Virus record (IMG/VR): IMGVR_UViG_2802429228_000006
Reading direction: 5' to 3' (one strand)
Length of the DNA: 47,939 nt
Source of the DNA: a virus
Taxonomy: Duplodnaviria; Heunggongvirae; Uroviricota; Caudoviricetes
The translations under genes were made by a program, and so were the position numbers. Positions 1,093 through 21,666 of this stretch are shown in pieces (position 1 is the stretch's first letter; each line of letters opens with the position of its first letter). Below the pieces are notes generated by a model. That model did no database searches. It was not told the origin of the DNA and saw only the letters and a program-made list of their open reading frames with translations.

Positions 1093-1924
1093 TTATTGTG
1101 ATCAAAAACAATATTTTATTAACATATGGTAAGGTGAGTTATAGATGCTTTTTTAGAGAAATAATTATTTAAAATAATAAGTTAGTGATGGTTATAGGAG
1201 GTGAGTATTGGGTGTGATTTCAAACTTCAAAACAAATGTGTCCTGCGATTTAATACACGATTGAGTTAATTTGAAATAACCTGTTGTAAACAGGTGAGTT
1301 TTAGTTCTTCACCTGTTTGGCAGGGGGGAGAATAATACGTAGTCTCCATACATTATGTAAGTATCCCGCATAATCGTGCCATTCACATTTAGAGACCCTT
1401 TTGCATTTCAGAAGAGCAACGTCCCCCTTGATTAAGGATAGCGTTGCATCGACCCATTGAACTCAGAGCTCATAACAGACATTCATTTTTTATGGCTGAA
1501 AGGCATTCGTGGCTGGTTGGTATATGGAAGCTGTGAACGAAAAGAATGGTGCTTGTTGAGGGGATAGATGAAGCACAGCCAAATTAAGCAGATGAAAAAA
1601 TAAAAAAGCCCGCATAAGCGGACTTCTATGTCACTAAAGAGCTGCGGCTCCTTTGCGTATCCTTTTTTGTCTCCTCACCGTCTGGTCGGTGTCTTACTGA
1701 GACTGCTAACTTCCTGTTTTTGTTGGTGTTGTTCTTACACCGTCTAATCATGATTGGCTGGCGGAGTTTGAATAAATATTATATTTATTTGATTTTTAAC
1801 GATTTTGTTTAATTCAGTTTTTGTGCGTATACCTAATTGTATACCAATGGCTGTAAGTTAATGTGAAATTAAAGCGCATTTTTACTTGGATTGATGCTAT
1901 ATCGTACAGGAAAAAAATTTTTTT

Positions 1925-2210
1925 CGAAAGAACTGTTCACACTGTTCACCTTTCTGTTTTCTCCTTTTCTTTCAGTATGATAGATGGTGAATAATGGGTG
2001 AAGGGTGAACATTCGATTCTTCACCTCCGGCATTCTGCCGATGTGACTTGTGCAGGGGATTAATCCTCCGCACTGAAATCACACAGGGAGAAAAAAGTTT
2101 TTTTTGATTTGATTGTTCACACTGTTCACCTTTCGTTTTTCTCTTTTAATTTCAGTGTGATAACGGGTGAATATACGGTGAAGGGTGAACAGTGGATTGT
2201 TCACCTGCGG
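1925..2210. repeat. crr-like iteron cluster: two ~180-bp direct repeat units, each with TGTTCACC/GGTGAACAG octamers in both orientations
   Basis: Near-identical blocks ...ttgttcacactgttcacctttc...ggtgaagggtgaaca... at about 1925-2030 and 2105-2210, immediately downstream of alpha. This is where P4 crr lies. Confidence 0.6.
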
Positions 2211-2264
2211 GGGATATCGGGATAAAAAAAGACCGGCAGATGCCGGTCAGGTGGGTCATGAGGG

Positions 2265-4598
2265 TCAGGTTGTTGCAGGGTCGTCACATTTTGGCAGCCA
2301 GTCGCCGTAGCTTTCCTCTTTCAGCGTCAGGTTGGTCTGTATCCCCTGTTTGGTATGGCGCTTCTCGTAATTCAGTCCGTATTCCTTCAGCATCACCGGC
2401 AGCCCCAGCCCGAACATTTTCAGACTGAGTACATTCCGGTAGCCGTTTGCCTCCATGTAGGCCAGATAGGCGTGATAGAGGTATTTACGGTAATTACGCG
2501 GGATGATACTGGCGTTCCCCATATACATGCCGCTGGTCTGCGGCAGGGTTTCCAGATAGCCGATAAAATCAAACGTCGGGTCGGCATCCCGTTTGATGTT
2601 CAGTGCCTCGTCTGAGTTCTGCTGGGACTGAAGCAGTGACCGGGCGAGCATCGGGTCGCTGAATTTCTGCATCAGGTGACGCACGATGACCGCCAGCTCG
2701 CGGGTGATTTTGTCCTTAAGCTGCGGGTCGCGCTCCTGCGGGGCTATCTGTTCCGGGAAGTGAATAATCACCCGCCGGCGTGACACGCCGCCGCTGCGGT
2801 CGGTGAAGCGCATCGGGTTATTGTTCACGGCCAGAATCACCGCCGGGATATGCGTGGAGTACGCATCCCGGTATTTCGGGTCCACGGACACCGCATCGCC
2901 GCCGGTGATGGCCTTGAGTCCGGCACCGTCGCCGCTCCATTTTTCCTGGTCCGGCAGGCGTATCAGTGAGAAGCCAGTTAACGCGGCACGTTCACGCGGG
3001 GATTCCAGCGTCTCGATGGTGGCCGACGTGGCGTTATCCTCCCCGGCCAGCAGGGTGGCGATTTCGGCCATGATACTTTTGCCGCTGCCGCCGGGACCGG
3101 TCACCTCCAGAAAGAGCTGCCAGTCGTAGCGGTTTGCCAGCACCATAAACAGTGCGGCCAGAATCACGTCGCGTTTTTCCGCACGGCCACCGGCGGCACG
3201 GTCAAGCCAGCGCCAGAACGCGGGGGCGTGGTTTTCCAGCGTTTCCCCTTCCACCGGCGGGGTGAAATCCACATCGCACAGGGTGCGCATCCAGTGTGAC
3301 GGACTGTGCGGGTGGAACGTGCCGTTCTGCGTGTCGAGCACGCCGTTACGAAAGCCAATCAGGCGGCGGGAGGGGGCTTCCTGCTGCGGAATAATCAGCT
3401 TCAGGGTGTCCACCACGGAGGCCACCTTCCCGGAGGAGAACGGCGCGCGCAGACGCTGAAACAGCCCGGCCACATCCCGGGCAAAGTCCTGTGGCGGCAG
3501 CACCTTCCAGACACCATTTTCATAGCGGGACAGAAGCTGGCCGTTGGCATCGACCGCGAGCGCCTCGCCGTAATGCTCATAGATACGCATGGCCTTTTCG
3601 CTGGTACTCATGGCGGAAAACTCCGCTTCGCTCATGGTGTCGAACGGGCTTTCAGCCGGTGGCCGGATGGCATCATAAATGGCCTTACGGGTGGCTTCCC
3701 CGCCGTACTGCGTGAAGGCATCATTCCAGTCACCGAAGACCGGCGGCAGGGCAACAACACCTTCACACGCATCTGCGGCTGCGGCGGCTTTTTTCTGGCC
3801 GTCACCGCTGAGGTCACGGTCTGCGGCAAGGACAATCTGACAGGCCGGATGCTTCTGCCGGGCAAGGCTGGCCAGAGAAAGGAGGTTCACGGAAGAAAGC
3901 GCCACCATCACCGTTTCACCGGTCAGGTGATGCACGGTAAGTGCGGTCGCGTATCCCTCCGCTATCCACAGACGTTTTCCGGCCTGATTCTGTCCTTCAA
4001 GGGTGTGACAGGTGCCCCTGACCTGTCCGCCTTTCAGGGTGCGCTTACGGCCGTCAGCACTGATTAACTGAAGGTTAACCAGTTCGCCGCTGTCGTCATA
4101 CAGTGGCACCACAAGGTCACCGGCACGCCAGCTCACGCCACCGGCTCTGTGTGTGCCGGTCAGCATCCGGCATTCCCGGCCGGGAAAGCCCTTGCGGGTC
4201 AGGTAGGCGTTACCGGTTCCGGGACGGGTTTTCGCCATCAGGGTTTGTGCCAGTGCGGCTGCGTTCTTCCGGGCAGCGTCTGTTTCAGCACCGGCGGCAG
4301 CCGTCACTGCCGGGTCAGCCGGGGGCAGGCTGCCGGTCACGGCAGCCACCTTTGCGGCCGCGTCGGACGGGGAAACACCAAACACCTTTTCAACCAGTTT
4401 CAGGCCGTCACCGGCACCACACTGATTGCAGTACCAGGTGCCGCGCCCCTCCCTGTCATCAAAACGGAAGCGGTCACTCCCGCCACAGACCGGACAGGGC
4501 TGATGACGGTTTTTCAGCACCTGAATCCCCAGCGCCGGGAGAATACGCGGCCAGTGGCCGAGCGCATGGCTGACGGTGGCGGTTACGTTCATTTTCAT
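2265..4598 (-). CDS. alpha: P4-type alpha protein (primase/helicase replication protein)
   Basis: 777-aa ORF with an N-terminal CxxC...CxxC zinc-binding primase-like region and P4 alpha-like sequence throughout; AAGGAG RBS upstream of the ATG. Confidence 0.9.
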   Translation of the reverse strand: MKMNVTATVSHALGHWPRILPALGIQVLKNRHQPCPVCGGSDRFRFDDREGRGTWYCNQCGAGDGLKLVEKVFGVSPSDAAAKVAAVTGSLPPADPAVTAAAGAETDAARKNAAALAQTLMAKTRPGTGNAYLTRKGFPGRECRMLTGTHRAGGVSWRAGDLVVPLYDDSGELVNLQLISADGRKRTLKGGQVRGTCHTLEGQNQAGKRLWIAEGYATALTVHHLTGETVMVALSSVNLLSLASLARQKHPACQIVLAADRDLSGDGQKKAAAAADACEGVVALPPVFGDWNDAFTQYGGEATRKAIYDAIRPPAESPFDTMSEAEFSAMSTSEKAMRIYEHYGEALAVDANGQLLSRYENGVWKVLPPQDFARDVAGLFQRLRAPFSSGKVASVVDTLKLIIPQQEAPSRRLIGFRNGVLDTQNGTFHPHSPSHWMRTLCDVDFTPPVEGETLENHAPAFWRWLDRAAGGRAEKRDVILAALFMVLANRYDWQLFLEVTGPGGSGKSIMAEIATLLAGEDNATSATIETLESPRERAALTGFSLIRLPDQEKWSGDGAGLKAITGGDAVSVDPKYRDAYSTHIPAVILAVNNNPMRFTDRSGGVSRRRVIIHFPEQIAPQERDPQLKDKITRELAVIVRHLMQKFSDPMLARSLLQSQQNSDEALNIKRDADPTFDFIGYLETLPQTSGMYMGNASIIPRNYRKYLYHAYLAYMEANGYRNVLSLKMFGLGLPVMLKEYGLNYEKRHTKQGIQTNLTLKEESYGDWLPKCDDPATT

Positions 4599-4612
4599 GG
4601 TGTTGTTCTCCT

Positions 4613-4933
4613 TCAGTGCAGTACCGGCGCTTTTATGTGACGGGCACAGAGTTCATCCATCACAACCAGCCCGAGAAAGGACAGCGACGGCGCGGCCTTC
4701 AGGGGGCCGGATTCCATTAAATCTTCCAGCAGGGCACAGGCTATCTGACGCCCTTTTTCCTCACCGTGCTGGCGCAGATAAAAGCCTTCCAGCTCAGCGG
4801 CGATGGCCGCCTCCAGTGATTCAAGGGTGAGATGCGGGTAGCGGTGCTGACGTTCGCACACGGTCAGCCAGGCACAGGCGACAGCGCGACGGTAAAGGGC
4901 AGCGCGTAAGACGGGCGGTAAGGGTGTTTTCAT
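4613..4933 (-). CDS. Hypothetical P4-family early-operon protein (106 aa)
   Basis: ORF with a GGGAGG RBS, co-oriented and tightly packed upstream of alpha. Confidence 0.55.
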
Positions 4934-5068
4934 TTGCTTTCCTCCCTGTGACAGATGACAGCATTCCGTGCCGGTTGCATTAACTGATAAGGCATATCTG
5001 CGTCTCCTGAAGACGTGCGTATCCCTGCGCGAATACGCACATTTAATTTTTCGGGGGTCGTTTTTTAA

Positions 5069-5524
5069 TTACAGATAATTGCGGTAACTGTTATCCGGGG
5101 TGGTTTCCGGGTCAGGCTCCGTGCGGGGGATTTCCCGCCATTCCCGCGCCACCGGTGCCGCCCGGCTGACCGGAACAGGGGCCTGCGGGTAAATATCCAG
5201 ATATTTCTCCCGCCATTTCTGTAATTCCGGGTCTCCGGCCATTTCTTTCAGTACCGCATGCCGGTTTACGGGGCTGCGTTTAAACAGGTCAGGACGGTCA
5301 CAGGTAAATTCCCGCAGAAAACGCCCCAGCGGGATGTCTGTGGTGCGCCCGTCTGCGAGGATACGCACAAGGATACTGAATTTACGGCGGTACGGGTTCC
5401 AGACAATGTCCGGGCAGCGGTACGGCATTTCCCACGGAATACCGTCTTCCAGAATGCCGACCACGGCCACATCGGGAAAACCGGCAGAACGGTAAATCTC
5501 ACCGGGCTGGGGAAAATCAAACAT
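5069..5524 (-). CDS. P4 orf151-like protein (151 aa)
   Basis: Exactly 151 codons in the position P4 orf151 occupies upstream of alpha; GGGGAG RBS. Confidence 0.55.
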   Translation of the reverse strand: MFDFPQPGEIYRSAGFPDVAVVGILEDGIPWEMPYRCPDIVWNPYRRKFSILVRILADGRTTDIPLGRFLREFTCDRPDLFKRSPVNRHAVLKEMAGDPELQKWREKYLDIYPQAPVPVSRAAPVAREWREIPRTEPDPETTPDNSYRNYL

Positions 5525-5804
5525 GCGTCTTGTCTCCCCGGTCTTTCTGCTGGGCGAGAAAATCGCGGCACAGGCCTTTGGCTTTCAGCTCATTCAGCAC
5601 AAAATCAATATCTTCATTCAGGTAGCTGAAAATATGCGGAATGTAGAGCTGATGCAGGCCGGAGAGTTCACGGTGAATCAAATCACCCCCAACAAACTGG
5701 GATACGGCGCTGGCGCGGTTGAGCTTATGGTAAGCCTCAATGCTGAGGTGTTCACGGGCGTCATGACGCGCTGAGACGGTCTGAGGGGCTTTTTTATTAC
5801 GCAC
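5517..5804 (-). CDS. Putative derepression (epsilon-like) protein, about 95 aa, GTG start
   Basis: The C-terminal part of ORF-track entry 5517..6050 has coding character. GGAGG followed by GTG defines a short gene; the long upstream extension is implausible. Confidence 0.4.
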
Positions 5805-5994
5805 GGGACACCTCCACCACCGGCAGACGGGCAGCAAGGGAGAGCACATAGTCACGGACAAGGGAACGGCGGGCGCTGCGTTCATCACCGGCGACGGTGC
5901 GAAGCATGCAGATACGGGGATGACGGTCTGCGCGACGGACAGCCGCAAACACAAAGACAAATTCAGGGTGTGAGGGGGTAAGGGTTGTAGCCAT
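5797..5994 (-). CDS. Small early ORF (65 aa), possible Icd/Kil-like host cell-division inhibitor
   Basis: Internal ATG of ORF 5797..6396 preceded by AAGGAGG; begins [16 protein letters not shown]. Sits immediately downstream of the seqC-like element. Confidence 0.4.
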
Positions 5995-6002
5995 GATGGC
6001 AG

Positions 6003-6255
6003 CCTCCTTGAAGTAACAGTTACAGCTACCACTGGAGTTCCTACGCTCATGGGTGGTAGCCCGGACGGGGGTAGGAATACCGGCCTTCAAGGAAACCGGC
6101 CAGCCCGAAGGCTGCCCCGCCCGGACCACCATTATCTGACAGAGGCTACGGTTTAAAAACCACAGCCAGAAAAACAGGTGTGCCGAAGCAACGACGTAAA
6201 AAAAGACGCATGGCGCGTCATATGTCGCCTTGAAGTAACTCGGGTTCCTACGCCC
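6003..6255 (-). promoter_or_regulatory. P4-type RNA immunity region: two similar sequences flanking a central complementary element (candidate CI-like RNA around 6070..6095)
   Basis: CCTTGAAGTAAC...GTTCCTACGC occurs at about 6005-6045 and 6228-6255. The central stretch ggtaggaataccggccttcaagg contains the reverse complements of both half-motifs (GTAGGAA, CTTCAAGG). Confidence 0.4.
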
Positions 6256-6347
6256 GGCTGCCGATTTTGCGACAGCGGAAAAACTATATCCGCAAATGCC
6301 GGAAAAAGGCAAGCCAGAAAAAGGGACTTTTTGCAGAACAGGCATCA

Positions 6348-6614
6348 TCATGCGTCGTACCCCCGTTTGCGTCCGGCAATGCGCCCGGCCATCCATGCGG
6401 TGACTTCAGAGTGCAGCCAGGCCACATTTTTACCGCCAAGACTCACCTGTGGCGGAAATTCCCCCTTACGGATGAGTTCATAGATGGTCGAGCGTGACAG
6501 GCCGCACAGGTGCATCACTTCCGGCAGACGTAAAAAACGCTCCTGCGTGATGTCCGGCAGCGGCATCAGTGGCGTCACAGGGGCGGGAGACGGGGAAGAA
6601 AAAACAGCTTGCAT
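6348..6614 (-). CDS. AlpA-family phage transcriptional regulator (short HTH protein)
   Basis: RLPEV...[17 protein letters not shown]...W...SEV..W matches the AlpA-type HTH signature. The true start may be an internal Met. Confidence 0.65.
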
Positions 6615-6892
6615 CGGGCTACCTCGTTAATGTCCATACAGCACCGGATAAGTCCGTCCGGCGTCGGGTAGCGCTTTATTTTGTGAATATTTTCAGCAGA
6701 CGCAACAGGGGGGATTTGTTCCGGTAGCCTTACAATGGCTGTGTGTTTTTTATCCATCTGGACTGGAAGGGTCTCAAAGGGTTCTGAAGGACCTGGAATT
6801 TTTTATAGTGAAATACAAATTGTTTTTTCTTATTTATTTCAGTGAATTAATAAAAATAAAAAGTAATAAACAGCACAAAAAGTCCATGAGCG

Positions 6893-6997
6893 GGTGAACA
6901 GTGGTGAACAGACGGTGAACAGTCATCGCTGCGATTGTTCACCCTTTAACTTACTGTATTGCTTATCTTTTTTCTTATGGTGAACAGAGGTGAACAG
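6893..6997. repeat. ori-like iteron cluster: five direct GGTGAACAG copies plus one inverted copy
   Basis: gggtgaacagtggtgaacagacggtgaacag...attgttcaccc...ggtgaacagaggtgaacag. Same octamer as the crr cluster and about 4.9 kb from it, as for P4 ori versus crr. Confidence 0.6.
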
Positions 6998-7076
6998 TAA
7001 AATATAAAAAAAACAAACAGTAAGCCGGTTTTTCCTGCGACCTTTTCCTGGCTTGCCGGTCTGAGGATGAGTCTCC

Positions 7077-7094
7077 TGTGTCAGGGCTGGCACA
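7077..7094 (+). promoter_or_regulatory. Delta/Ogr-type activator site (TGT-N12-ACA) of a P_sid-like late promoter
   Basis: tgtgtcagggctggcaca lies about 75-90 bp upstream of the sid ATG. Confidence 0.5.
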
Positions 7095-7166
7095 TCTGCA
7101 ATGCGTCGTGTTGTTGTCCGGTGTACGTCACAATTTTCTTAACCTGAAGTGACGAGGAGCCGGAAA

Positions 7167-7901
7167 ATGTCTGACAACACCATCCCTGAATATCTGCAAC
7201 CCGCGCTGGCACAACTGGAAAAGGCCAGAGCCGCCCATCTTGAGAACGCCCGCCTGATGGATGAGACCGTCACGGCCATTGAACGGGCAGAGCAGGAAAA
7301 AAATGCGCTGGCGCAGGCCGACGGAAACGACGCTGACGACTGGCGCACGGCCTTTCGTGCAGCCGGTGGTGTCCTGAGCGACGAGCTGAAACAGCGCCAC
7401 ATTGAGCGCGTGGCACGCCGGGAGCTGGTACAGGAATATGACAATCTGGCCGTGGTGCTGAATTTTGAACGTGAACGCCTGAAAGGGGCGTGTGACAGCA
7501 CGGCCACCGCCTACCGGAAGGCACATCATCACCTTCTGAGTCTGTATGCAGAGAATGAGCTGGAACACGCCCTGAATGAAACCTGTGAGGCGCTTGTCCG
7601 GGCAATGCATCTGAGCATCCTGGTACAGGAAAATCCGCTCGCCAACACCACCGGCCATCAGGGCTACGTCGCACCCGATAAAGCTGTCATGCAGCAGGTG
7701 AAATCATCGCTGGAACAGAAAATAAAACAGATGCAAATCAGCCTCACCGGCGAGCCGGTTCTCCGGCTGACCGGACTGTCAGCGGCAACACTCCCGCACA
7801 TGGATTATGAGGTGGCAGGCACACCGGCACAGCGCAAGGTGTGGCAGGACAAAATAGACCAGCAGGGAGCAGAGCTTAAGGCCAGAGGACTGCTGTCATG
7901 A
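7167..7901 (+). CDS. sid: Sid, P4 capsid size-determination (external scaffold) protein
   Basis: 244-aa product from MSDNTIPEYL with a GAGGAG RBS. First gene of a sid-delta-psu operon with P4 sizes. Confidence 0.8.
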   Translation: MSDNTIPEYLQPALAQLEKARAAHLENARLMDETVTAIERAEQEKNALAQADGNDADDWRTAFRAAGGVLSDELKQRHIERVARRELVQEYDNLAVVLNFERERLKGACDSTATAYRKAHHHLLSLYAENELEHALNETCEALVRAMHLSILVQENPLANTTGHQGYVAPDKAVMQQVKSSLEQKIKQMQISLTGEPVLRLTGLSAATLPHMDYEVAGTPAQRKVWQDKIDQQGAELKARGLLS

Positions 7902-8398
7902 TTTACTGCCCGTCGTGTGGACATGTTGCTCACACCCGTCGCGCACATTTCATGGACGATGGCACCAAGATAATGATTGCACAGTGCCGGAATATTTATT
8001 GCTCTGCGACATTTGAAGCGAGTGAAAGCTTTTTCTCTGACTGTAAAGATTCAGGAATGGAATACATTTCAGGCAAACAGAGATACCGCGATTCACTGAC
8101 GTCAGCCTCCGGCAGCATGAAACGCCCGAAAAGAATGCTTGTTACCGGATATTGTTGTCGGAGATGTAAAGGCCTTGCACTGTCAAGAACATCGCGGCGT
8201 CTGTCTCAGGAAGTCACCGAGCGTTTTTATGTGTGCACGGATCCGGGCTGTGGTCTGGTGTTTAAAACGCTTCAGACCATCAACCGCTTCATTGTCCGCC
8301 CGGTCACGCCGGACGAACTGGCAGAAAGCCTGCATGAAAAACAGGAACTGCCGCCAGTACGCTTAAAAACACAATCATATTCGCTGCGTCTGGAATGA
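7898..8398 (+). CDS. delta: Delta, late-gene transcriptional activator (tandem Ogr-like zinc fingers)
   Basis: 166 aa with two CxxC...C..C Ogr-type modules (MIYCPSCGHVAHTRRAH... and ...CCRRCKGLALSRTS...CTDPGCGLVF); start overlaps the sid stop. Confidence 0.85.
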   Translation: MIYCPSCGHVAHTRRAHFMDDGTKIMIAQCRNIYCSATFEASESFFSDCKDSGMEYISGKQRYRDSLTSASGSMKRPKRMLVTGYCCRRCKGLALSRTSRRLSQEVTERFYVCTDPGCGLVFKTLQTINRFIVRPVTPDELAESLHEKQELPPVRLKTQSYSLRLE

Positions 8399-8471
8399 GG
8401 GCTGCCGGTTAATACCGGCCGTCGCCGCACACCGTATTTTTATTCTTCAGCATGATGAGAAAGAGATAACG

Positions 8472-9044
8472 ATGGAAAGCACAGCCTTACAGCAGGCCTT
8501 TGACACCTGTCAGAATAACAAAGCAGCATGGCTGCAACGCAAAAATGAGCTGGCTGCGGCCGAACAGGAATATCTGCGGCTTCTGTCCGGGGAAGGCAGA
8601 AACGTCAGTCGCCTGGACGAATTACGCAATATTATCGAAGTCAGAAAATGGCAGGTGAATCAGGCCGCCGGTCGTTATATTCGTTCGCATGAAGCCGTTC
8701 AGCACATCAGCATCCGCGACCGGCTGAATGATTTTATGCAGCAGCACGGCACAGCACTGGCGGCGGCACTGGCACCGGAGCTGATGGGCTACAGTGAGCT
8801 GACGGCCATTGCCCGAAACTGTGCCATACAGCGTGCCACAGATGCCCTGCGTGAAGCCCTTCTGTCCTGGCTTGCGAAGGGGGAAAAAATTAATTATTCC
8901 GCACAGGATAGCGACATTTTAACGGCCATCGGATTCAGGCCTGACGCGGCTTCGGTGGATGACAGCCGTGAAAAATTCACTCCTGCGCAGAACATGATTT
9001 TTTCGCGTAAAAGTGCGCAACTGGCATCACATCAGTCTGTGTAA
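8472..9044 (+). CDS. psu: Psu, polarity suppression protein (Rho antagonist / capsid decoration)
   Basis: 190 aa; the MESTALQQAFDTCQNNKAAWLQRKNELAAAEQEYLRL N-terminus is recognisable as P4 Psu. Confidence 0.9.
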   Translation: MESTALQQAFDTCQNNKAAWLQRKNELAAAEQEYLRLLSGEGRNVSRLDELRNIIEVRKWQVNQAAGRYIRSHEAVQHISIRDRLNDFMQQHGTALAAALAPELMGYSELTAIARNCAIQRATDALREALLSWLAKGEKINYSAQDSDILTAIGFRPDAASVDDSREKFTPAQNMIFSRKSAQLASHQSV

Positions 9045-9080
9045 AACTCCCCGAAAATCCGCCCGTTTTTACTGAAAAAA

Positions 9081-9119
9081 GCCATGCATCGATAAGGTGC
9101 ATGGCTTTGCATGCGTTTT
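9081..9119 (+). terminator. Hairpin plus T-rich tract downstream of psu
   Basis: gccatgcatcgataaggtgcatggc followed by tttgcatgcgtttt. Confidence 0.45.
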
Positions 9120-9208
9120 CCTGCCTCATTTTCTGCAAACCACGCCATTCCCGGCGCGGTCTGAGCGTGTCAGTGCAACTGCATTAAAACCGCCCCGCAA
9201 AGCGGGCG

Positions 9209-9227
9209 GGCGAGGCGGGGAAAGCAC
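9209..9227. other. cos site, P2/P4 type (19-nt cohesive-end sequence)
   Basis: ggcgaggcggggaaagcac matches the P2/P4 cohesive end as I recall it, in the P4 position just past psu. Confidence 0.7.
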
Positions 9228-9315: not shown

Positions 9316-11403
9316 ATGGGCAAAATGCAAAAAACTGAGGTCGAAGTATTTTCTGAGTTGGAGTCACTGTGTACATCTCATGGTTTTATTCATTGTTTAG
9401 CATTATTAAGCTGCATAAATAATATTACTATCTATGAAGACAAACTTAATTTTAAAGATGTGCAACATCTATACGAAAAAGAACGATTGATAAGAACCGA
9501 GATTTCTACGGTTGCAGGATTGTTGTTAAAGTCTGAAATTAATGTAAATTATCCCGGCGAAGAAGCACTGTTGAAATTATACGAAGATGTGAATGCATCT
9601 TTGAATATTTTACATAGTGCTATGCTTTTGACTGAGAAGAATGGCGATTACAACAATGCGATTATAAAAGAGAGTATATTTTATGCTGCTGAATCTGCTT
9701 ATGACTTTCAATATTTAGATATGGCGGAGGAAAAATACTCCTTAGATAATTCTTGGTTTTTAGAGAATATGGGGTTTACATGCATCGATATGGTGTCAGT
9801 AGGCCGGTGTATAGAGTCTATAATAGGGAGGCAAATTAATGATTTTTTAAATGGTGGTCAAGGGATTTTTAATGAGTGGCTATTAAATGCTTACGAGTTG
9901 TCAATTAATGAAATAGTTACTGAGACAGGTATTTCTTATGTGAAGGTAAGAACTATCATTGATTTGTTTTCGTCAGGTGGAAATTCAAATGAAACCTTTC
10001 AGTCTGTGAGTGACTTTAATATCTTTAATGCTAGACCCATAATCCGCACTGGAGATAGGTATTATTGTTTTTCAGCCTATTCATTGGCTCAGTCAATATA
10101 TGAAACACCATTTTTTTGGATGAATAATGACAAAAAATATAGACCTATATCTGCACAACATAGAGGACAATTTGTAGAAGATTATGTATATAGAAAAATG
10201 ACATCGATTTTTGGAATTGAGAATGTATTCAAAAATGTATATATAGTGAACTCTAATAATGAGACGCTAGGTGAAATAGATGTACTGGTATCTTTTTCTG
10301 ATTCGGTAATAATTTATCAGGCAAAATCTAAGAAGTTAACTATTGAAGCTAGAAAGGGAAATGGGAATGCTATACAAAAAGATTTTCAAGGTGCTATACA
10401 AGATGCTTATGATCAGGGGGTTTCTTGTGCTCAATTCATCGTATCTGGCGCAAGCCTAACTGATCAAAATTTCAACCGATTGAATCTCAACTCTTCAGTC
10501 TCTAGATGTTATATTGTTCCAATTATATCTGAGCATTATCCGTCTTTGAGTTTTCAGGTTCGTCAGTATTTGAATGTTAAAATAACAAATGAAATTTACC
10601 CGCCATTTATAATGGATGTTTTCCTTTTAGATGTTCTAACAGAGTTTTTAAATACGCCGCTATATTTTTTATCTTACATTGATCGTCGTTCGAAATATAA
10701 CATGAGAGTATTTTCTTCTCATGAATTGACAGTCTTTTCTTTGCATCTAAAACAGAATCTATGGATTGACAATGAATGTGATATGTTTATGTTGCATGAT
10801 GATATATGTGCTGATCTCGATATTGCGATGTTAGTCCGCAGGAAGGGGATCTCTGGTAAACATACTCCAAGTGGTATTCTAACACTCCATCAGGATGGCT
10901 TTATTAGAAAAATAATTAACTCATTGGAATCGGAAAATCATAAATTGGCGATGGATTTAGGTTTGCTTTTGCTTTCTTTGGATAGTGATGCTATTGAAAA
11001 CATCAATAAAATAGCTAATAAAACGATATTTTTATCTTCACTTGATAAGAAACACCATGATTTTTCAACTGTCATTGGGGATACGGGTATTACAGTTCAT
11101 TGTAATTACTATAAGAAAGATGTCGCGGGAAAAAAGTTGTATGAACATTGCATAAAAAGAAAATATATAACTAAATGTAAAAAATGGATTGGTATACATG
11201 TTAGACCAATAACATATGATATAAATTATGGAATTATGTTGGATTTTGAATGGGAATATTCTTCTGATATTGAAAGTATTATCACTCCTACTCCATTACA
11301 AAATACTTTGGTTAATGTTAAGGGAAATATGACTCAAGCAAAACGACCGGGTAGAAATGAACCATGTTTTTGTGGTAGCGGTAAAAAATGTTGTTTACGT
11401 TAA
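9316..11403 (+). CDS. Cargo protein (695 aa): putative PD-(D/E)xK/NERD-like nuclease with C-terminal SEC-C-type Cys motif; candidate anti-phage factor
   Basis: AT-rich ORF between cos and int. GEIDVLVSFSDSVIIYQAKSK fits a D..E.K nuclease core; the C-terminus CFCGSGKKCC fits a SEC-C metal-binding motif; no P-loop seen. Confidence 0.75.
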   Translation: MGKMQKTEVEVFSELESLCTSHGFIHCLALLSCINNITIYEDKLNFKDVQHLYEKERLIRTEISTVAGLLLKSEINVNYPGEEALLKLYEDVNASLNILHSAMLLTEKNGDYNNAIIKESIFYAAESAYDFQYLDMAEEKYSLDNSWFLENMGFTCIDMVSVGRCIESIIGRQINDFLNGGQGIFNEWLLNAYELSINEIVTETGISYVKVRTIIDLFSSGGNSNETFQSVSDFNIFNARPIIRTGDRYYCFSAYSLAQSIYETPFFWMNNDKKYRPISAQHRGQFVEDYVYRKMTSIFGIENVFKNVYIVNSNNETLGEIDVLVSFSDSVIIYQAKSKKLTIEARKGNGNAIQKDFQGAIQDAYDQGVSCAQFIVSGASLTDQNFNRLNLNSSVSRCYIVPIISEHYPSLSFQVRQYLNVKITNEIYPPFIMDVFLLDVLTEFLNTPLYFLSYIDRRSKYNMRVFSSHELTVFSLHLKQNLWIDNECDMFMLHDDICADLDIAMLVRRKGISGKHTPSGILTLHQDGFIRKIINSLESENHKLAMDLGLLLLSLDSDAIENINKIANKTIFLSSLDKKHHDFSTVIGDTGITVHCNYYKKDVAGKKLYEHCIKRKYITKCKKWIGIHVRPITYDINYGIMLDFEWEYSSDIESIITPTPLQNTLVNVKGNMTQAKRPGRNEPCFCGSGKKCCLR

Positions 11404-11430: not shown

Positions 11431-12624
11431 TTAGTTATTTTTTTTTACTTTGTTTCCCCACCATTCCATGAGTTCAATTCGTTGCTCTAAGTATGTAGAT
11501 CTATTGTATGCTCTCCGAACTTCATTTTTATCACTGTGAGCTAAAGCCGCTTCAATAACATCTGCATTGAAACCAGCTTCATTCATTGCAGTGCTTGCAA
11601 TAGAGCGAAGGCCATGAGCAACTAGTTTTCCGCCAAAACCAATGCGTTTTAAAGCTGCATTAGCAGTTTGGCTATTCATTGGCTGTTTAGGGTCATTTCT
11701 ACTTGGAAAAATATGTTCACGATGGGCACTAATAGGCTTCATTACTTCCAAAATATCTAAAGCCTGACGTGATAAAGGAACAATGTGTTCACGTTTGGCT
11801 TTCATCCGTTCAGGGGGAATAGTCCAGAGTTTTGTATCAAGATCGATCTCTGCCCAACAAGCACCAGAGGCTTCAGAAGGGCGTACAAGCGTCAAGAGTT
11901 GCCATTCAATGAGACAGCGAGTCGGAACAGATAGGTTTGACATAGCTAAAGAACGCATCAGCTTCGGCAATTCTTCTGGCCGCAATGTTGGCATGTTTTG
12001 CTTTTTTGGCTTCTCAAAGGCCATCCCAACCCCAGATGCTGGATTGGCATCAATCAGACCAGTGTTTACAGCGTAAATCATTATCTCGTTAATTCGCTGT
12101 ATCAGTCGACGTACAGTTTCAAGAGCCCCACGAGCTTTGATTGGCTCAAGAGCTTCGACTAGCGTCCGGGCTTTGATTTGCTGGACGGGAATCTCTCCAA
12201 TGGCTGGGAATATGTCTTTTTCCAGCGAACGCCATATATCTTTAGCGTAATCAGGGGAAACGCTTTTGCTTTTTATCTGAAACCAGTTGGTCGCAACAGT
12301 CGAAAAAATACTGTCTAGAGCTATCTGTTGTTGTTCTTCGATAAATTCAGCTTGAACTTGTGGGTCTATACCATTAGCCAACAAAGCAAGGTAATCCGCT
12401 CTTAACCGTCGAGCATCAGCAAGTGAAAGAGCGGGGAAAGCACCTATCCCCATCATTGTTCTTTTTTTTGTAGCTGGTCGTTGATAGCGAAATCGCCAAA
12501 GTTTCTTACCGCTTGTTTTCACTATCAGAAAGAGGCCTTCGCCATCATGCAACGTCAGATCCTTTTCTAATGCTTTAGCGCGCAGAACTTCTGTATTGGT
12601 TAGGGGGCGTGTTGTTCTTGCCAC
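11431..12624 (-). CDS. int: P4-type tyrosine integrase (IntA-like)
   Basis: 397-aa product with a P4/CP4-57 integrase-like sequence and a C-terminal catalytic region (HGLR..., ...AHSD...RAY). Adjacent to the att repeat. Confidence 0.9.
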   Translation of the reverse strand: MARTTRPLTNTEVLRAKALEKDLTLHDGEGLFLIVKTSGKKLWRFRYQRPATKKRTMMGIGAFPALSLADARRLRADYLALLANGIDPQVQAEFIEEQQQIALDSIFSTVATNWFQIKSKSVSPDYAKDIWRSLEKDIFPAIGEIPVQQIKARTLVEALEPIKARGALETVRRLIQRINEIMIYAVNTGLIDANPASGVGMAFEKPKKQNMPTLRPEELPKLMRSLAMSNLSVPTRCLIEWQLLTLVRPSEASGACWAEIDLDTKLWTIPPERMKAKREHIVPLSRQALDILEVMKPISAHREHIFPSRNDPKQPMNSQTANAALKRIGFGGKLVAHGLRSIASTAMNEAGFNADVIEAALAHSDKNEVRRAYNRSTYLEQRIELMEWWGNKVKKNN

Positions 12625-12645
12625 TTTGGCCGCTCCTTCATGAAT

Positions 12646-12697
12646 TGGTATACGCGTTTAGGCATATATCCTATCGTATACCTAAACGTATACCAAT
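12646..12697. promoter_or_regulatory. GTATACC box cluster between int and att (candidate integrase arm sites)
   Basis: ttggtatacg...cgtatacctaaacgtataccaat includes a 10-bp inverted repeat (ttggtatacg / cgtataccaa). The same box pair recurs at 1826..1848 at the other end of the element. Confidence 0.35.
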
Positions 12698-12737
12698 AAT
12701 CACTGGATTTAGCTGGATATCCTCGGACAACAGTAGA

Positions 12738-12773
12738 CACAAAAAAGCCCGCAGAGCTTGTGTCATGCGGGCT
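12738..12773 (-). terminator. Rho-independent terminator (minus strand) downstream of the ssrA-end copy
   Basis: Stem agcccgca/tgcgggct with a T6 run on the minus strand. Confidence 0.45.
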
Positions 12774-12808
12774 TTCAGGATTTCTCCGGACGTATCCGGA
12801 AGAGCAAG

Positions 12809-12853
12809 TGGTGGAGCTGGCGGGAGTTGAACCCGCGTCCGAAATTCCTACAT
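12809..12853 (-). repeat. 45-bp direct repeat of the ssrA 3' end (att core copy)
   Basis: tggtggagctggcgggagttgaacccgcgtccgaaattcctacat is identical to 46879..46923, the 3' end of intact ssrA, then diverges. Confidence 0.85.
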
Positions 12854-12969
12854 ACCATTATAACATGTTGCAAAACAACTATTTATGTTAATTTTCAATC
12901 ACTTAAGTTTACGATGTATTACCTTGTTTTATGTGTTTTTAACTCTTTGCCGCCATTATGCCGCCACTC

Positions 12970-14193
12970 TTATTTTAAATATTCATACTTCATCATTTGA
13001 TGAATAAGGAGTTCAACTTTTCTAAAAGTGGTATTTTCATAATGTTCAACAAGGGATTCATCAAAGTCTTCAATCCATCCTTTTGCGGGATTATAGGTCG
13101 AAAAATTAAAATTATTTTTGTATAGATAGGGGGTGGCTTCTAGTGTACTAAACACAGTCCAGGAAACAGGGTTTGTAACTCTAAATATTTTTTTTAAAAC
13201 AGGACAGTGGGTATCATTGGTTTCAACTATGTTTTCTATTTTTGGGGGGATAATTACATTAATCCCAATATCGCTATCTTTTTGGTTTAATATCTTTGTT
13301 GATCGATACGATATCCCTGATATATTTTTGTTTCTGTCACTACTAATCCATTGCATTAATAGGTTTGGTATTATGTATTCTTTATTAAAACTTGCGTTTT
13401 CATTATCTTTTGTATAGTTACATGCAAGGACTAAAGGCCATGCAATCAACTTTGAAATTTTATCATTAATTTGATCCATGAAATTATCATTATTTAGATC
13501 GTAATCATCATCTGAACCTTGTTCGAATGAATACCAAAGATCTCCCGGTTTTGTACGAAGTGCAGATGTTAAATTGTACCCAAGATCTAAAATTCTTATA
13601 TTTGAATTTTCTTTATCGGATATGAAGGAAGATATGTAAAGTTTATCAAAGTCAGGTTTTCCCATTTCTTGCCAACATACAAATATTGATGTTCCAAGAT
13701 ATAAACATGGAAGACCGGATACAGAAAATCTTTGTGCGCTAACTAAATGTCTATTTTTAAATGGTATATGAAATAATTCTTCTCTTTGTTTTAGGATGCA
13801 CTCACTTTTCCTTACGCGAAATAAAGGGGTGTGTGGGTTGCATAATTTAGTTAGAGGAACAGTCATCTTATAAAGATGAGTATGCATTGATGACTTGGTA
13901 ATTGCCAAATCGAATTTTTTATAAGCTTCTTTAACATTTCCTATTAAAAATAGCTTAAGAGTTTCTATTATTTTATCAGATAAATATATTATTGATTTTG
14001 TGCGAATCTTTACTTGTTTAATTATCTCGTTGTCAGGATATTTATTTCTAATGGAGTCAATTAATTCTAAATAGCACTCGACTCTCTTAGAAAAGTCAGA
14101 AATTAGTTTTCCCTCGGCAATGAATGGGGGTTGCAATAGTTCATGTTTTTTTAGTTCTTCCGATATCTGTTCTAATTCGATAATGTTGCGCAT
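12970..14193 (-). CDS. RES-domain protein (407 aa), candidate NAD-targeting toxin / abortive-infection effector
   Basis: AT-rich ORF between att and int. LFRVR...QRFSVSGLPCLYLGTSIFVCWQE matches the RES signature (R...GRWN..G.P.LY......E). No adjacent partner gene. Confidence 0.6.
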   Translation of the reverse strand: MRNIIELEQISEELKKHELLQPPFIAEGKLISDFSKRVECYLELIDSIRNKYPDNEIIKQVKIRTKSIIYLSDKIIETLKLFLIGNVKEAYKKFDLAITKSSMHTHLYKMTVPLTKLCNPHTPLFRVRKSECILKQREELFHIPFKNRHLVSAQRFSVSGLPCLYLGTSIFVCWQEMGKPDFDKLYISSFISDKENSNIRILDLGYNLTSALRTKPGDLWYSFEQGSDDDYDLNNDNFMDQINDKISKLIAWPLVLACNYTKDNENASFNKEYIIPNLLMQWISSDRNKNISGISYRSTKILNQKDSDIGINVIIPPKIENIVETNDTHCPVLKKIFRVTNPVSWTVFSTLEATPYLYKNNFNFSTYNPAKGWIEDFDESLVEHYENTTFRKVELLIHQMMKYEYLK

Positions 14194-14197
14194 GTGC

Positions 14198-15217
14198 TTA
14201 ATCCATCAAGGTTGCTAATGGGTTTTTAGTTACTGCATCTTCAAGATGATCTGGGGAAAAATGAGCGTAAATCATCGTCATTTTTATATCGGCATGTCCA
14301 AGAATATCGCGCAGTACCAGTATATTTCCACCGTTCATCATAAAATGACTGGCAAATGTATGGCGCAGAACATGGGTACATTGGCCTTCTGGTAGTTCTA
14401 AACCGGCTCGCTTTACTGCACGCTCAAAGGCTTTTCTGCATGGGGTGAATAACTTCCCCCTATTCTTAGGCAGTTCTTCATATAAATCCTTAGAAATAGG
14501 CACAGTTCGGTTTTTCTTGCCTTTGGTCTTGGTATAAGTGATACGGTATTTTGATACCTGATGACTCTGCAGGTTTTCGGCTTCGCTCCAGCGTGCGCCG
14601 GTGGCCAGGCATATTTTTGCAATCAAAAGCAGGCTGGAGCTTTGAGAATCGGCGCAGGCATCCAGCAGACGTTTAATTTCTTCCGGGGTCAGGAACGCCA
14701 ATTCACTCTCAGCAATTTTAAATGTTGGCAGCCCAGCAAGCGGGTTGGGGGCTGACCAGTGGCCCAGCTTTTTCAGTGTACCAAAAACAGATGATAGATT
14801 GCGCTGTTCAAGGTTTACCGTGCGGGGCTTAACGGGCGACATAAACGTGCCATCTTCATTTCGTACTTCACCTTTTAACCGTGCTTCGCGGTATTTCGTA
14901 AAGTCACCGGCTGTCAGTTCTGAAGCGATGGGATCGCCTAGACCATTACAGATAATTCTAAGTTTCGCTATGAGGCGCTTGGGGTCTGCGAGTGTTTGAC
15001 CATACAGGGAATACCACTGCTCAATTAATTCTGATAGGTGTCGCCGATCTTCCTTTTCCCCCAGCCATGGTTTTTTGTTCACTTCTTCCATTGTGAAGCT
15101 TTCAAAAGCAATGGCTTCGCCTTTCGTAGCAAATTGCTTACGCACGCGCTTGCCATTGCGTCCATTGGGATAGCACTCGCACAACCATTTACCGTTTGGC
15201 TGTTTTCTGACAGTCAT
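14198..15217 (-). CDS. int: P2/186-family tyrosine integrase
   Basis: 339 aa with a C-terminal catalytic region (ARWSEA..., HVLRHTFAS, ...MTMIYAH); position next to the repressor. Confidence 0.9.
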   Translation of the reverse strand: MTVRKQPNGKWLCECYPNGRNGKRVRKQFATKGEAIAFESFTMEEVNKKPWLGEKEDRRHLSELIEQWYSLYGQTLADPKRLIAKLRIICNGLGDPIASELTAGDFTKYREARLKGEVRNEDGTFMSPVKPRTVNLEQRNLSSVFGTLKKLGHWSAPNPLAGLPTFKIAESELAFLTPEEIKRLLDACADSQSSSLLLIAKICLATGARWSEAENLQSHQVSKYRITYTKTKGKKNRTVPISKDLYEELPKNRGKLFTPCRKAFERAVKRAGLELPEGQCTHVLRHTFASHFMMNGGNILVLRDILGHADIKMTMIYAHFSPDHLEDAVTKNPLATLMD

Positions 15218-15219
15218 GT

Positions 15220-15852
15220 TTAGATACTCTTTATTACTTTGACTGCACGCCCAATAACTTCCACATCATCGGCAGAGCACTCGAAAGACGCTTCATCTTG
15301 ATTTACTACAATCTTATTGCCGGGAATCCGCATGATTTTTGCAATAATAATCATTCCATCAATATTGATAAGCCAGAATCCATTGCTGACTTGTTTAACT
15401 GATTTATCGATGAGATAACAATCAGTAGGGGTTTCTAAGAACATCGATTCTTCATAATCTGCAGGTAATATGCTGTGGTCTAGGAAAATCTCTTCATCAA
15501 TACTGAGTTGTCCATTTTCCAAGGTTCCTTTAGGAATAGATGGAGTTATGAGTTTGGATAACGGTTTAATTGCTTGTTTGTTCTCGTTATGAGATCTTTT
15601 CTCAGACTCGTATCCTTCTTTCATGCTTCCCTGTCCAGTGGCTAACCAAAGTAACGAAACACCGGTTTCTAGTGCACACTGAATTATCCAGTCAGCAGGA
15701 AAACTGTCACGTAACACTCTGTTTGCCATAGTACTTTTTGAGACATTCAGGTGCTCGCTTAATGCCTGCTTAGTTGTGAATCCATAAGCCTCAAGCAGCC
15801 TCTCAATAGCTGCCTTACCTCCCGTATCGGAACCCATTCTGATGTTTAACAT
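15220..15852 (-). CDS. cI: 186-type CI immunity repressor
   Basis: 210 aa with an N-terminal HTH; divergent from an Apl-like gene across an operator-bearing intergenic region; GGAG RBS. Confidence 0.7.
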   Translation of the reverse strand: MLNIRMGSDTGGKAAIERLLEAYGFTTKQALSEHLNVSKSTMANRVLRDSFPADWIIQCALETGVSLLWLATGQGSMKEGYESEKRSHNENKQAIKPLSKLITPSIPKGTLENGQLSIDEEIFLDHSILPADYEESMFLETPTDCYLIDKSVKQVSNGFWLINIDGMIIIAKIMRIPGNKIVVNQDEASFECSADDVEVIGRAVKVIKSI

Positions 15853-15871
15853 TGGTAATCTCCATTTGACA

Positions 15872-15886
15872 ATCTTGAATCAAGAT
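15872..15886. promoter_or_regulatory. Candidate operator palindrome in the cI/apl switch region
   Basis: atcttgaatcaagat (7-1-7 perfect palindrome) between the divergent cI and apl. Confidence 0.35.
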
Positions 15887-15973
15887 CGTAATGTCTTCGT
15901 GTCTCTTGATGTGAGAGTTAAAGAGACGAGCTAAAACGAACTAACACGCACACAAAGTAAGAGATACTGCACT

Positions 15974-16216
15974 ATGAGTACTGATATTTCAATTCGTGTA
16001 CCAAAAGAGATGGCTACGCCTGCAGAGTTCGCAGAGTGGGAGGGCATTTCCCGTGGCTCTGTTTACCAAAAAATTCACCATGGTCAACTTGCTAAGTACA
16101 TGGTCAAGAAAGAAAAAAATAAAGGCCGCGTAAGCCTTCGTTATCTGATGTACAAAACTGATCAGGTCCGTGAATCCCTCGGTCATTCCAACTTCCGCGT
16201 CATTGTTGGTAAGTAA
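15974..16216 (+). CDS. apl: Apl/Cox-like excisionase / transcriptional regulator
   Basis: 80 aa with an HTH (EFAEWEGISRGSVYQKIHHGQL); first gene of the rightward lytic operon. Confidence 0.6.
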   Translation: MSTDISIRVPKEMATPAEFAEWEGISRGSVYQKIHHGQLAKYMVKKEKNKGRVSLRYLMYKTDQVRESLGHSNFRVIVGK

Positions 16217-16248
16217 GTTCAATTATGGGAACTTTCTAAGGGGGCACC

Positions 16249-16758
16249 ATGTTTGATTACAAGATTTCCAAACATCCGCATTTCGATGAAGCCTGTAGGG
16301 CTTTTGCACTGCGTCACAACTTGGTGCAACTGGCAGAACGTGCAGGCATGAATGTGCAGATTCTGCGGAACAAGCTGAACCCAGCTCAGCCTCATTTATT
16401 AACCGCACCAGAAATCTGGCTGCTTACCGATCTGACTGAAGATTCAACGCTGGTAGATGGTTTTCTGGCACAGATTCATTGTCTGCCATGTGTACCGATT
16501 AATGAGGTGGCAAAAGAGAAACTGCCGCATTACGTCATGAGCGCAACTGCAGAGATCGGGCGTGTTGCAGCAGGTGCGGTATCTGGTGATGTAAAAACTA
16601 GTGCCGGTCGTCGTGATGCTATCAGCAGCATTAACTCTGTAACACGACTGATGGCGCTGGCGGCTGTTTCATTGCAGGCCCGTTTACAGGCTAATCCTGC
16701 GATGGTGAGTGCAGTTGATACCGTGACTGGCCTCGGTGCTTCATTCGGTTTGCTGTGA
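16249..16758 (+). CDS. cII: CII-like lysogeny establishment regulator (186 type)
   Basis: 169 aa, the size of 186 CII, in the matching position after apl. Confidence 0.65.
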
Positions 16759-16765
16759 GGTGCTT

Positions 16766-17062
16766 ATGCTGACGAAAGAACCATCATTTGCATCGCTGCT
16801 GGTAAAACAAAGCCCGGCAATGCACTACGGTCACGGCTGGATCATGGGTGAGGATGGTAAACGCTGGCATCCATGTCATTCACAAGATGAATTGCTGTCT
16901 GAATTGACCACGAGGAAACGGAGAAAGTCAAAATGTATGCAGCGGAAAGTGAAGTGGTTTATCAGTTTCGTTACAGAGGGGAGAGTTATTCAGTACCTGA
17001 AGATGATTTGCTCTGTTGTTATCCGTCGTTGTCGGGCGATGGCAGTTACTTTTTCACGCTAA
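16766..17062 (+). CDS. Hypothetical early protein (frame and extent uncertain)
   Basis: ATG with GAGGTG RBS; the C-terminal third overlaps the next ORF in another frame, so one of the two may be shorter or spurious. Confidence 0.3.
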   Translation: MLTKEPSFASLLVKQSPAMHYGHGWIMGEDGKRWHPCHSQDELLSELTTRKRRKSKCMQRKVKWFISFVTEGRVIQYLKMICSVVIRRCRAMAVTFSR

Positions 17063-17157
17063 GGGATGGGACGTTTTTACGGGGAGAGCAGGTTAAAGAG
17101 ACGATACGAAAAAATGTATCTCCTCTTGAACGTTACCGTAAGAACAAAGAACGATAG
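16933..17157 (+). CDS. Hypothetical early protein (74 aa)
   Basis: ORF with a GGAG upstream at suboptimal spacing and plausible coding character. Confidence 0.35.
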   Translation: MYAAESEVVYQFRYRGESYSVPEDDLLCCYPSLSGDGSYFFTLRDGTFLRGEQVKETIRKNVSPLERYRKNKER

Positions 17158-17179
17158 TTGCGTTTTGGGGATATGAATT

Positions 17180-17521
17180 ATGGCAATTAATGGCGCTGCG
17201 GCGACTGTTCCATTAAGCCCCGGTGAACGCCTGAATGGACTTAATCACATTGCGGAGTTAAGGGCGAAAGTATTTGGCCTGAATATTGAGTCAGAGCTTG
17301 AGCGGTTTATTAAAGATATGCGTGATCCACGGGATATCAATAACGAACAAAATAAACGAGCACTGGCTGCCATATTCTTTATGGCAAAAATTCCAGCTGA
17401 ACGTCATAGCATCAGCATTAATGAGCTGACCACTGACGAAAAGCGGGAGTTGATTAAAGCAATGAATCATTTTCGTGCAGTGGTGAGCTTATTTCCCAGA
17501 CGGCTAACCATGCCGAATTAA
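17180..17521 (+). CDS. Hypothetical early protein (113 aa)
   Basis: ORF in the early operon; no recognisable motif. Confidence 0.5.
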   Translation: MAINGAAATVPLSPGERLNGLNHIAELRAKVFGLNIESELERFIKDMRDPRDINNEQNKRALAAIFFMAKIPAERHSISINELTTDEKRELIKAMNHFRAVVSLFPRRLTMPN

Positions 17522-21656: not shown

Positions 21657-21666
21657 GGTGACTTTT

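Follow-up and report, generated by a model that had tools for sequence, protein, structure and literature searches.

Introduction

A P4-type satellite lies directly beside a P2-type prophage in the viral sequence IMGVR_UViG_2802429228_000006, which raises the question of whether the two elements are equipped to switch on one another's late genes. The whole 47,939-nt stretch was analyzed and is called the window below. The four late promoters of phage P2 have the dyad TGT-N12-ACA in common and depend on Ogr (PMC3931495). Delta is a homolog of Ogr, and both proteins promote late expression of P2 and P4 (PMC8628076). P4 is trans-activated by Ogr (PMC7552001).

A preliminary description of the window, made from its letters and open reading frames, had placed one TGT-N12-ACA dyad upstream of the satellite gene sid and three more upstream of the prophage genes O, V and FI, and had read them as shared activator sites for reciprocal transactivation. 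Late transcription of P2 and P4 requires an activator together with the RNA polymerase alpha subunit and is blocked by rpoA109; the activator footprints the dyad. The circuitry at issue is the classical P2/P4 reciprocal transactivation, which is already known, and nothing new on its mechanism is claimed here. Our analysis concerns which dyads in the window are activator sites, which promoters they would serve, and what the arrangement predicts for the satellite, the prophage and the cargo genes that they carry.

Results

The satellite and the prophage

Besides a chromosomal flank, the window contains a P4-type satellite and a P2-type prophage (Table 1). Positions 1911..9208 are 97.4% identical over 7.3 kb to phage P4 (X51522, 4291..11624), and the satellite genes stand in the order of the P4 record, namely alpha, orf106, orf151, epsilon, cI, orf88, ori, sid, delta and psu. 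The satellite shares its cos with P4 as well as this gene order. It differs from P4 in that the gop/beta/cII region is replaced by a 695-aa ORF between cos and int, and in its integrase and attachment site, which is ssrA in the satellite and leuX in P4. The P4-type satellite at this locus is apparently complete and intact. A 23-nt repeat, CGTATACCTAAnnGTATACCAAT, occurs near both satellite ends (1826..1848 and 12675..12697, 91% identical), and the two copies may be arm-type integrase binding sites.

The closest annotated relatives of the prophage are P2-like phages of E. coli and Klebsiella, at 95.6-97.5% identity. Among P2 relatives it is of the SopEΦ/Fels-2 type, and its layout is that of the Salmonella phage SopEΦ (Felsduovirus), with which it shares the orfY-int-cI left end and the same candidate cos. 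The late genes are arranged as Q and P leftward, O to S rightward, an AIPR gene on the minus strand, V to G, FI to D, and finally ogr. P2 has the same four late operons in the same order, with ogr after gene D as in the window, and it also carries a divergent cargo gene just upstream of the V promoter, orf30 in P2 and the AIPR gene here. The immunity region differs from that of P2 and is of the 186 type (CI with Phage_CI_repr). Three ORFs that are without a Pfam match occupy known cargo positions and are candidate defense or moron genes: the 695-aa ORF in the P4 defense hotspot, a 469-aa ORF between the prophage cos and Q, and a 407-aa ORF between att and int.

Table 1. Features of the satellite, the prophage and their late promoters. 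Positions are those of the window; promoter starts and -10 hexamers are predictions.
Feature	Coordinates	Strand	Remarks
P_LL activator site	6717..6734	-	TGTTCCGGTAGCCTTACA; predicted start near 6670 (-), upstream of orf88
orf88	6348..6614		downstream of P_LL site
P_sid distal activator site	7077..7094	+	TGTGTCAGGGCTGGCACA; centre 55.5 nt from predicted start ~7141
P_sid promoter-proximal dyad	7115..7132	+	TGTCCGGTGTACGTCACA; centre ~-17.5; overlaps predicted -10 CACAAT (7129..7134)
P4 late operon	7167..9044	+	sid 7167..7901, delta 7898..8398, psu 8472..9044; P_sid-driven; P4 record annotation
Satellite cos	9209..9227		GGCGAGGCGGGGAAAGCAC; exact 19-nt P2/P4 cos
695-aa ORF	9316..11403	+	no Pfam match; between satellite cos and int (P4 defense hotspot)
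P4-type integrase	11431..12624	-	Pfam search
P2-type prophage	~12853..46879		int, 186-type CI repressor (Phage_CI_repr), replication genes
407-aa ORF	12970..14193	-	no Pfam match; between att and int, position of SopEΦ orfY
Prophage candidate cos	22105..22123		GGCGTGGCGGGGATACGAG; best candidate, identical in SopEΦ
469-aa ORF	22222..23631	+	no Pfam match; between prophage cos and Q
Predicted P_P -10	26486..26491	-	TAGGTT; at -12..-7 relative to P start codon
P_P/P_O activator site	26526..26543	symmetric, no strand	TGTGTGGTTGTCGGTACA; single site common to both divergent promoters
Low-GC cargo cassette, S-V hotspot	32442..34335	-	AIPR gene, hairpin terminator, P_V promoter
Hairpin terminator after S	32468..32494		terminator prediction
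AIPR-domain gene	32497..34197	-	Pfam AIPR, E 1.6e-25
P_V activator site	34272..34289	+	TGTGACAGCCGTGATACA; centre 55.5 nt from V ATG 34336; predicted -10 CAGTCT (34324..34329)
V-operon terminator	38995..39010		hairpin, after G; just upstream of P_F site
P_F activator site	39029..39046	+	TGTGCCATTTTCCATACA; predicted -10 GAACAT (39081..39086); predicted start ~39093
ogr	46028..46246	+	72 aa, one CX2CX22CX4C zinc finger
ssrA	46879..47241	-	

Dyads are not over-represented overall, and their placement is non-random

The four dyads reported upstream of sid, O, V and FI are all real and are perfect matches to TGT-N12-ACA. The distance of 50-90 bp to the start codon that had been given for them is roughly right, as the gaps from dyad end to start codon are 73 nt for sid (ATG 7167), 79 nt for O (26622), 47 nt for V (34336) and 76 nt for FI (39122). 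As a set, however, the four fell short, since the dyad of the satellite promoter P_LL and the second dyad upstream of sid had been overlooked. A count against shuffled sequence, which had been proposed as a check on the sites, revealed no enrichment. The window contains 13 perfect dyads and shuffled sequences contain 12.13±3.35, with 46 of 100 shuffles reaching 13; therefore, the window shows no excess of the bare motif.

Unlike the overall motif frequency, the placement of the dyads is non-random. Six of the 13, beginning at 6717, 7077, 7115, 26526, 34272 and 39029, are wholly non-coding, and all six are found at late-promoter positions. Non-coding sequence accounts for 8.9% of the possible dyad positions (binomial P 4.9e-4), and shuffled non-coding sequence yields a mean of 1.12 dyads (P 0.0005 for six). 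The six sites head the P/Q, O..S, V..G and FI..D operons of the prophage, together with the sid-delta-psu operon and the P_LL transcript of P4. The dyads within coding sequence at 2271, 12098, 13690, 19534, 40338 and 42333 resemble chance occurrences.

We then scored the window with a weight matrix for which relatives supplied 63 distinct training sites and from which the window's own sites were excluded. Eight matches scored 13.4 or higher, compared to 1.0 expected at a threshold of 10 or higher. Promoter dyads scored 14.0-25.8 and perfect dyads within genes scored at most 6.3. Among the satellite sites, the values were 15.4 at 6717, 14.0 at 7077 and 14.3 at 7115; the prophage sites scored 23.3 (P_P/P_O), 14.7 (P_V) and 25.8 (P_F, the top score in the window). 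Thus, on this helper-derived matrix the P4 sites (14-15) rank below P_O and P_F (23-26) and about equal to P_V.

Two further matches deserve mention. A seventh perfect dyad at 26468..26485 (TGTGGTGTTCATGGCACA, score 13.4) covers the start codon of P as well as the predicted P_P start and is 58 nt away from the common P_P/P_O site; its SopEΦ version has one mismatch. Chance, coding constraint or an autoregulatory function could each account for it. Within gene D, about 267 nt upstream of ogr, a near-dyad (TGC-N12-ACA, 45761..45778, score 13.5) was considered as an Ogr-dependent ogr promoter. Because it is not kept in SopEΦ, P2 or 186, and about one such match is expected, we rejected this candidate and treat it as chance.

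The satellite promoters P_sid and P_LL

The sid promoter region (7010..7167) matches P4 base for base, including both dyads, the -10 element and the leader. Therefore, these dyads are the experimentally studied P4 sites themselves. The distal dyad is invariant across 77 P4-like loci. The second dyad lies 38 nt downstream of the distal one, in the promoter-proximal position, and P_sid of P4 reportedly contains a Delta site near -18. The predicted sid transcript would begin at about 7141 and carry a 26-nt leader with the Shine-Dalgarno sequence GAGGAG.

The P_LL dyad aligns with a P4 dyad, TGTTCAGGCTGTCTTACA, that is located upstream of orf88 at the position of the late leftward promoter of P4. 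The window and P4 versions differ by four spacer substitutions, with TGT and ACA kept. The same pattern holds in 75 P4-like loci, in which TGT and ACA of the P_LL dyad never vary and the spacer alone is substituted, and both half-sites are retained at all three satellite sites in P4-like loci. P_LL of P4 is activated by Ogr, Delta and Cox, and the GenBank record of P2 also notes Cox as a P_LL activator. We searched P_LL for a second site near -18, and the sole match was TGT-N12-AAA centred at about -27.5.

A single site between the divergent P_P and P_O promoters

The dyad that had been assigned to O is indeed a real dyad upstream of that gene, but it should not be assigned to O alone: the divergent promoters P_P and P_O share it as one symmetric site. 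We make this assignment because the records of P2 and 186 each annotate one site per divergent pair. In the P2 record (AF063097), positions 3057..3087 carry the label "activator binding site; pO, pP promoters", and the P and O transcripts are listed as starting at 3016 and 3127, respectively. The 186 record (U32222) lists a B site for "activation of pV and p12", a divergent pair, and a further B site for pJ. The B-protein sites of 186 thus occupy positions homologous to those in the window, with one site for the divergent p12/pV pair.

In the window, the predicted P_P start at 26479 (leftward) is the A of the P ATG, and the predicted P_O start at about 26590 (rightward) gives a 32-nt leader to the O ATG at 26622. 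The hexamer at the predicted P_O -10, CAACCA, is poor. The O/P intergenic regions of relatives from IMG/VR are 99-100% identical and thus uninformative, so SopEΦ, P2 and 186 were compared instead. The P-O intergenic region of SopEΦ is 142 bp long, as in the window, with equal dyad spacing. Direct alignment of the P/O, V and F promoter regions of the window with those of P2 was also tried and gave no usable homology beyond the dyad.

Promoter geometry and predicted leaderless mRNAs

One-mismatch dyads that we located in P2 and 186 coincide with the annotated activator or B-protein sites. The P2 dyad centres are 55.5 nt from the annotated P_P and P_O starts, and that of pF (site 17555..17583, start 17626..17628) is within 1-3 nt of this distance. 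For 186 pJ, about 57.5 nt separate the dyad centre from the annotated start. The sites of P2 and 186 are not identical in form to those of the window: the P2 P/O and P_F sites and the 186 sites are imperfect (TGT-N12-cCA) and those of the window are perfect, and the spacing at P2 P_V is N11 or N14 as opposed to N12 here.

The dyad centres in the window fall into two classes with respect to start codons. They are 55.5 nt from the start codons of P and V, both of which are without a Shine-Dalgarno sequence, and 81.5-87.5 nt from those of sid, O and FI, all of which have GGAG. Starts predicted at 55.5 nt from the dyad centre would therefore give sid, O and FI leaders of about 26-32 nt; the predicted P_F leader is 29 nt long, and the O and FI leaders each contain the Shine-Dalgarno sequence GGAG. 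The hexamers at -12..-7 of the six promoters are CACAAT, AAAATA, CAACCA, GAACAT, CAGTCT and TAGGTT, with A at -11 in all six and T at -7 in four. A search for sigma-70 consensus promoters returned zero matches in 6550..7200, 26400..26700, 38900..39200 and 34200..34336.

Because the P and V ATGs lie at 55.5 nt from a dyad centre, are without a Shine-Dalgarno sequence and are preceded by -10-like hexamers, the P mRNA (26479, minus strand) and the V mRNA (34336) are predicted to be leaderless in this lineage. P2 resembles the window in having one P_P/P_O site and no -35 element. A leaderless V is annotated for P2, whose record also marks an activator site for pV and has V transcription begin with the first base of the coding sequence. 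In contrast, P2 and 186 have a 23-nt P leader, compared to the 0 nt predicted here. SopEΦ is like the window: its dyads at P and V are perfect, and each is 55.5 nt from the respective ATG. We looked for transcript mapping of SopEΦ or Fels-2 and found none.

Conservation upstream of V and FI

To follow the sites through related phages, we collected the V, FI, O and sid regions of relatives from IMG/VR. Every one of the 33 distinct V-upstream sequences has a dyad centred 54.5-57.5 nt from the ATG, at 55.5 nt in 26 of them. These sequences fall into 16 mutually unrelated clusters, with a median identity of 0.31, a maximum of 0.46 and no cargo 12-mers in common; the clusters represent 16 cassette types, each with a P_V promoter of its own, from relatives with at least 97% V identity (IMG/VR loci L004..L083). 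Within the 100 nt before the V ATG, the only positions conserved across the 16 clusters are tTTGT-N12-ACAa, T at -17, A at -11 and T at -7. This pattern is strong evidence, at the level of sequence comparison, that the dyad is functional and that V transcription starts at the ATG. For FI, each of the 69 distinct upstream sequences contains a dyad with its centre 78.5-85.5 nt from the ATG, and across 22 clusters gAaCATA is kept where the P_F -10 is predicted.

P_V and the AIPR cassette

The preliminary description held that the P_V site lies just past the AIPR insertion and that the insertion left the late promoter intact. Our results do not bear this out. P_V lies inside the low-GC cassette, and its sequence shows no relationship to that of P_V in close relatives. 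GC content is 0.26-0.44 across 32400..34399, compared to 0.46-0.65 in the 100-bp windows on either side, two excepted, and the low-GC block (about 32440..34335; cassette GC about 33%) takes in P_V. The window's P_V variant was found in two IMG/VR loci alone, both with the same cargo, and it is unrelated to the SopEΦ-type P_V that is present in 52 other loci. SopEΦ itself differs from the window in having no S-V cargo (the gap is 68 bp) and a P_V that is unlike the window's outside the dyad. Since P_V lies in the low-GC block, occurs as a variant tied to its cargo and is unrelated to the SopEΦ type, the promoter behaves as an exchangeable cassette part and seems to travel with the cassette. In the V-flanking sequences, the loss of similarity to the window extends as far as the V ATG itself, and as judged from these alignments the right boundary of the cassette is the V start codon. 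The S-to-V gap in relatives was also sought, and the end of S was not found within the 1.5-kb flank.

We considered whether the P_V dyad is used in both directions for cargo genes generally. In 15 clusters, the cargo gene starts at anything from -19.5 to 99.5 nt from the dyad centre; with such variation there is no general geometry, and this idea was rejected. In the window, the AIPR start codon (34197) is 83.5 nt from the P_V dyad centre, compared to 87.5 nt for O and 84.5 nt for FI. Given this similar distance, the symmetric site could also drive AIPR leftward, as with P_P/P_O. The combined proposal, that P_V is a portable part of S-V defense-cargo cassettes with its boundary at the V ATG and transcript start, and that its symmetric dyad could also drive AIPR, is one that we regard as improbable and put forward as a long shot.

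Two activators and the wiring that they predict

The window encodes the two zinc-finger activators that had been proposed: Pfam Ogr_Delta matches Delta and Ogr with E values of 7e-22 and 9e-21. Ogr_Delta (PF04606) matches Delta in two stretches, and the protein has two CX2CX22CX4C motifs; 163 of its 166 residues are identical to P4 Delta. In tblastn comparisons, the Ogr of the window, which has a single Ogr_Delta domain, shares 55.7% identity with P2 Ogr, 67% with 186 B and 78% with SopEΦ orf42. The central reading of the preliminary description, that sites of the Ogr/Delta class stand upstream of the late operons of both elements, is upheld by the P4 identity, the P2/186 geometry and the conservation described above. 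We consider it very probable that the dyads are activator sites of the Ogr/Delta family and form a reciprocal transactivation circuitry of the P2/P4 type.

According to this model, small C4 zinc-finger activators of the Ogr/Delta family would bind hyphenated inverted repeats, for which the extended consensus in the window is T-TGT-G-y-C-A...r-y-ACA-A. The dyad would be centred 55.5 nt upstream of the transcript start, at a promoter with a weak -10 and without a -35, and the promoter would remain silent until activator bound at -55 recruits RNA polymerase. Six promoters would come under this control: P_sid and P_LL in the satellite, and P_P and P_O (through their common site), P_V and P_F in the prophage. 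Because the satellite and the prophage each carry an activator of the same family and sites of the same type, mutual late-gene switching is predicted, such that induction of either element would switch on the late genes of the other. Our analysis shows the sites with their positions and conservation, as well as the activator genes; for this locus, we infer activator binding, transcript starts and cross-activation from experiments on P2, P4 and 186.

The ssrA tandem and the helper question

A 45-bp direct repeat of the 3' end of ssrA (tmRNA) flanks the prophage at 12809..12853 and 46879..46923. The satellite integrase lies directly to the left of this ssrA-flanked prophage, and therefore we take the two elements to be in tandem at ssrA. 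A degenerate copy of the ssrA repeat (GCTGGCGGAGTTTGAA) is found near 1757..1775. The combination of sid with V or O recurs, with unchanged spacing, in at least four IMG/VR contigs. A search of 5,426 complete E. coli genomes (RefSeq) for the satellite/prophage junction (12300..13200) found none that covered at least 80% of it.

In the preliminary description, the neighboring prophage was called the helper of this satellite, an assumption based on adjacency. Transcriptional cross-talk between the two is likely. Packaging is a separate matter. The prophage candidate cos differs from the satellite cos at 5 of 19 positions, with one difference in the first 13 nt, and because of this mismatch the packaging compatibility of the neighboring pair is uncertain.

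Discussion

The dyads could in principle be chance occurrences of a low-information motif, with six specified bases, that happen to lie upstream of genes. The overall count, which 46 of 100 shuffles reach (12.1±3.4 expected), is what such an explanation predicts, and at least six of the 13 dyads do look like chance matches in coding sequence, with the seventh at 26468 unexplained. Chance does not account for the six dyads that fall within the small non-coding fraction, nor for their exact spacing to start codons or transcript starts, and at the homologous positions the records of P2 and 186 list activator sites. Nor does it account for the relatives, in which the dyad is kept in all 33 and all 69 distinct sequences and the flanks are otherwise random. 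This conservation analysis effectively refutes the chance explanation, which we regard as extremely improbable. Another explanation grants the dyads a regulatory role and gives them to a host factor, for example a CRP-like dimer (TGTGA...TCACA), instead of Ogr or Delta. Several sites begin with TGTGA or TGTGC and end with CACA or TACA, a superficial likeness to CRP half-sites. However, TGT and ACA are 10 nt apart in the CRP consensus, as opposed to N12 in every site collected from relatives; the exception is P2 P_V, with N11/N14. The sites are also confined to the late operon starts of P2-type phages and P4, and their homologs are annotated as activator (P2) or B-protein (186) sites. A host factor is thus about as hard to credit as chance.

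A more serious alternative accepts the sites as functional and questions the partnership. The wiring could be one-way or non-productive, with a P4 adapted to P2 or 186 residing at ssrA beside a SopEΦ-like prophage that is not its helper. The satellite cos is the exact P2 cos and the prophage candidate departs from it at 5 of its 19 positions, the window Ogr is 56% identical to P2 Ogr, and the P4 sites score below P_O and P_F on the helper-derived matrix. Against this, P2 Ogr, 186 B, PSP3 Pag, and the Delta proteins of P4 and φR73 reportedly cross-activate promoters of the family, the satellite-prophage tandem recurs at the same spacing in the contigs noted above, and the two cos sequences diverge at just one of their first 13 nt. 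We consider a non-productive pairing unlikely, though clearly less so than chance or a host factor, and we favor the reading in which the dyads are Ogr/Delta-family sites that connect the late promoters of both elements.

Recognition of canonical activator and site circuitry in both the satellite and the prophage helps annotation, and this circuitry predicts that each element can sense the induction of the other. The cos mismatch bears on whether tandem neighbors are true helper-satellite pairs. Predicted leaderless P and V mRNAs and the conservation of the dyad alone across unrelated hotspot cassettes bear on how defense cassettes may be swapped in P2-type phages without breaking the late tail operon. 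If the P_V dyad does also drive AIPR, then this abortive-infection gene would be inducible by Ogr or Delta, whether from the resident prophage, from the satellite or from a P2-type phage that superinfects.
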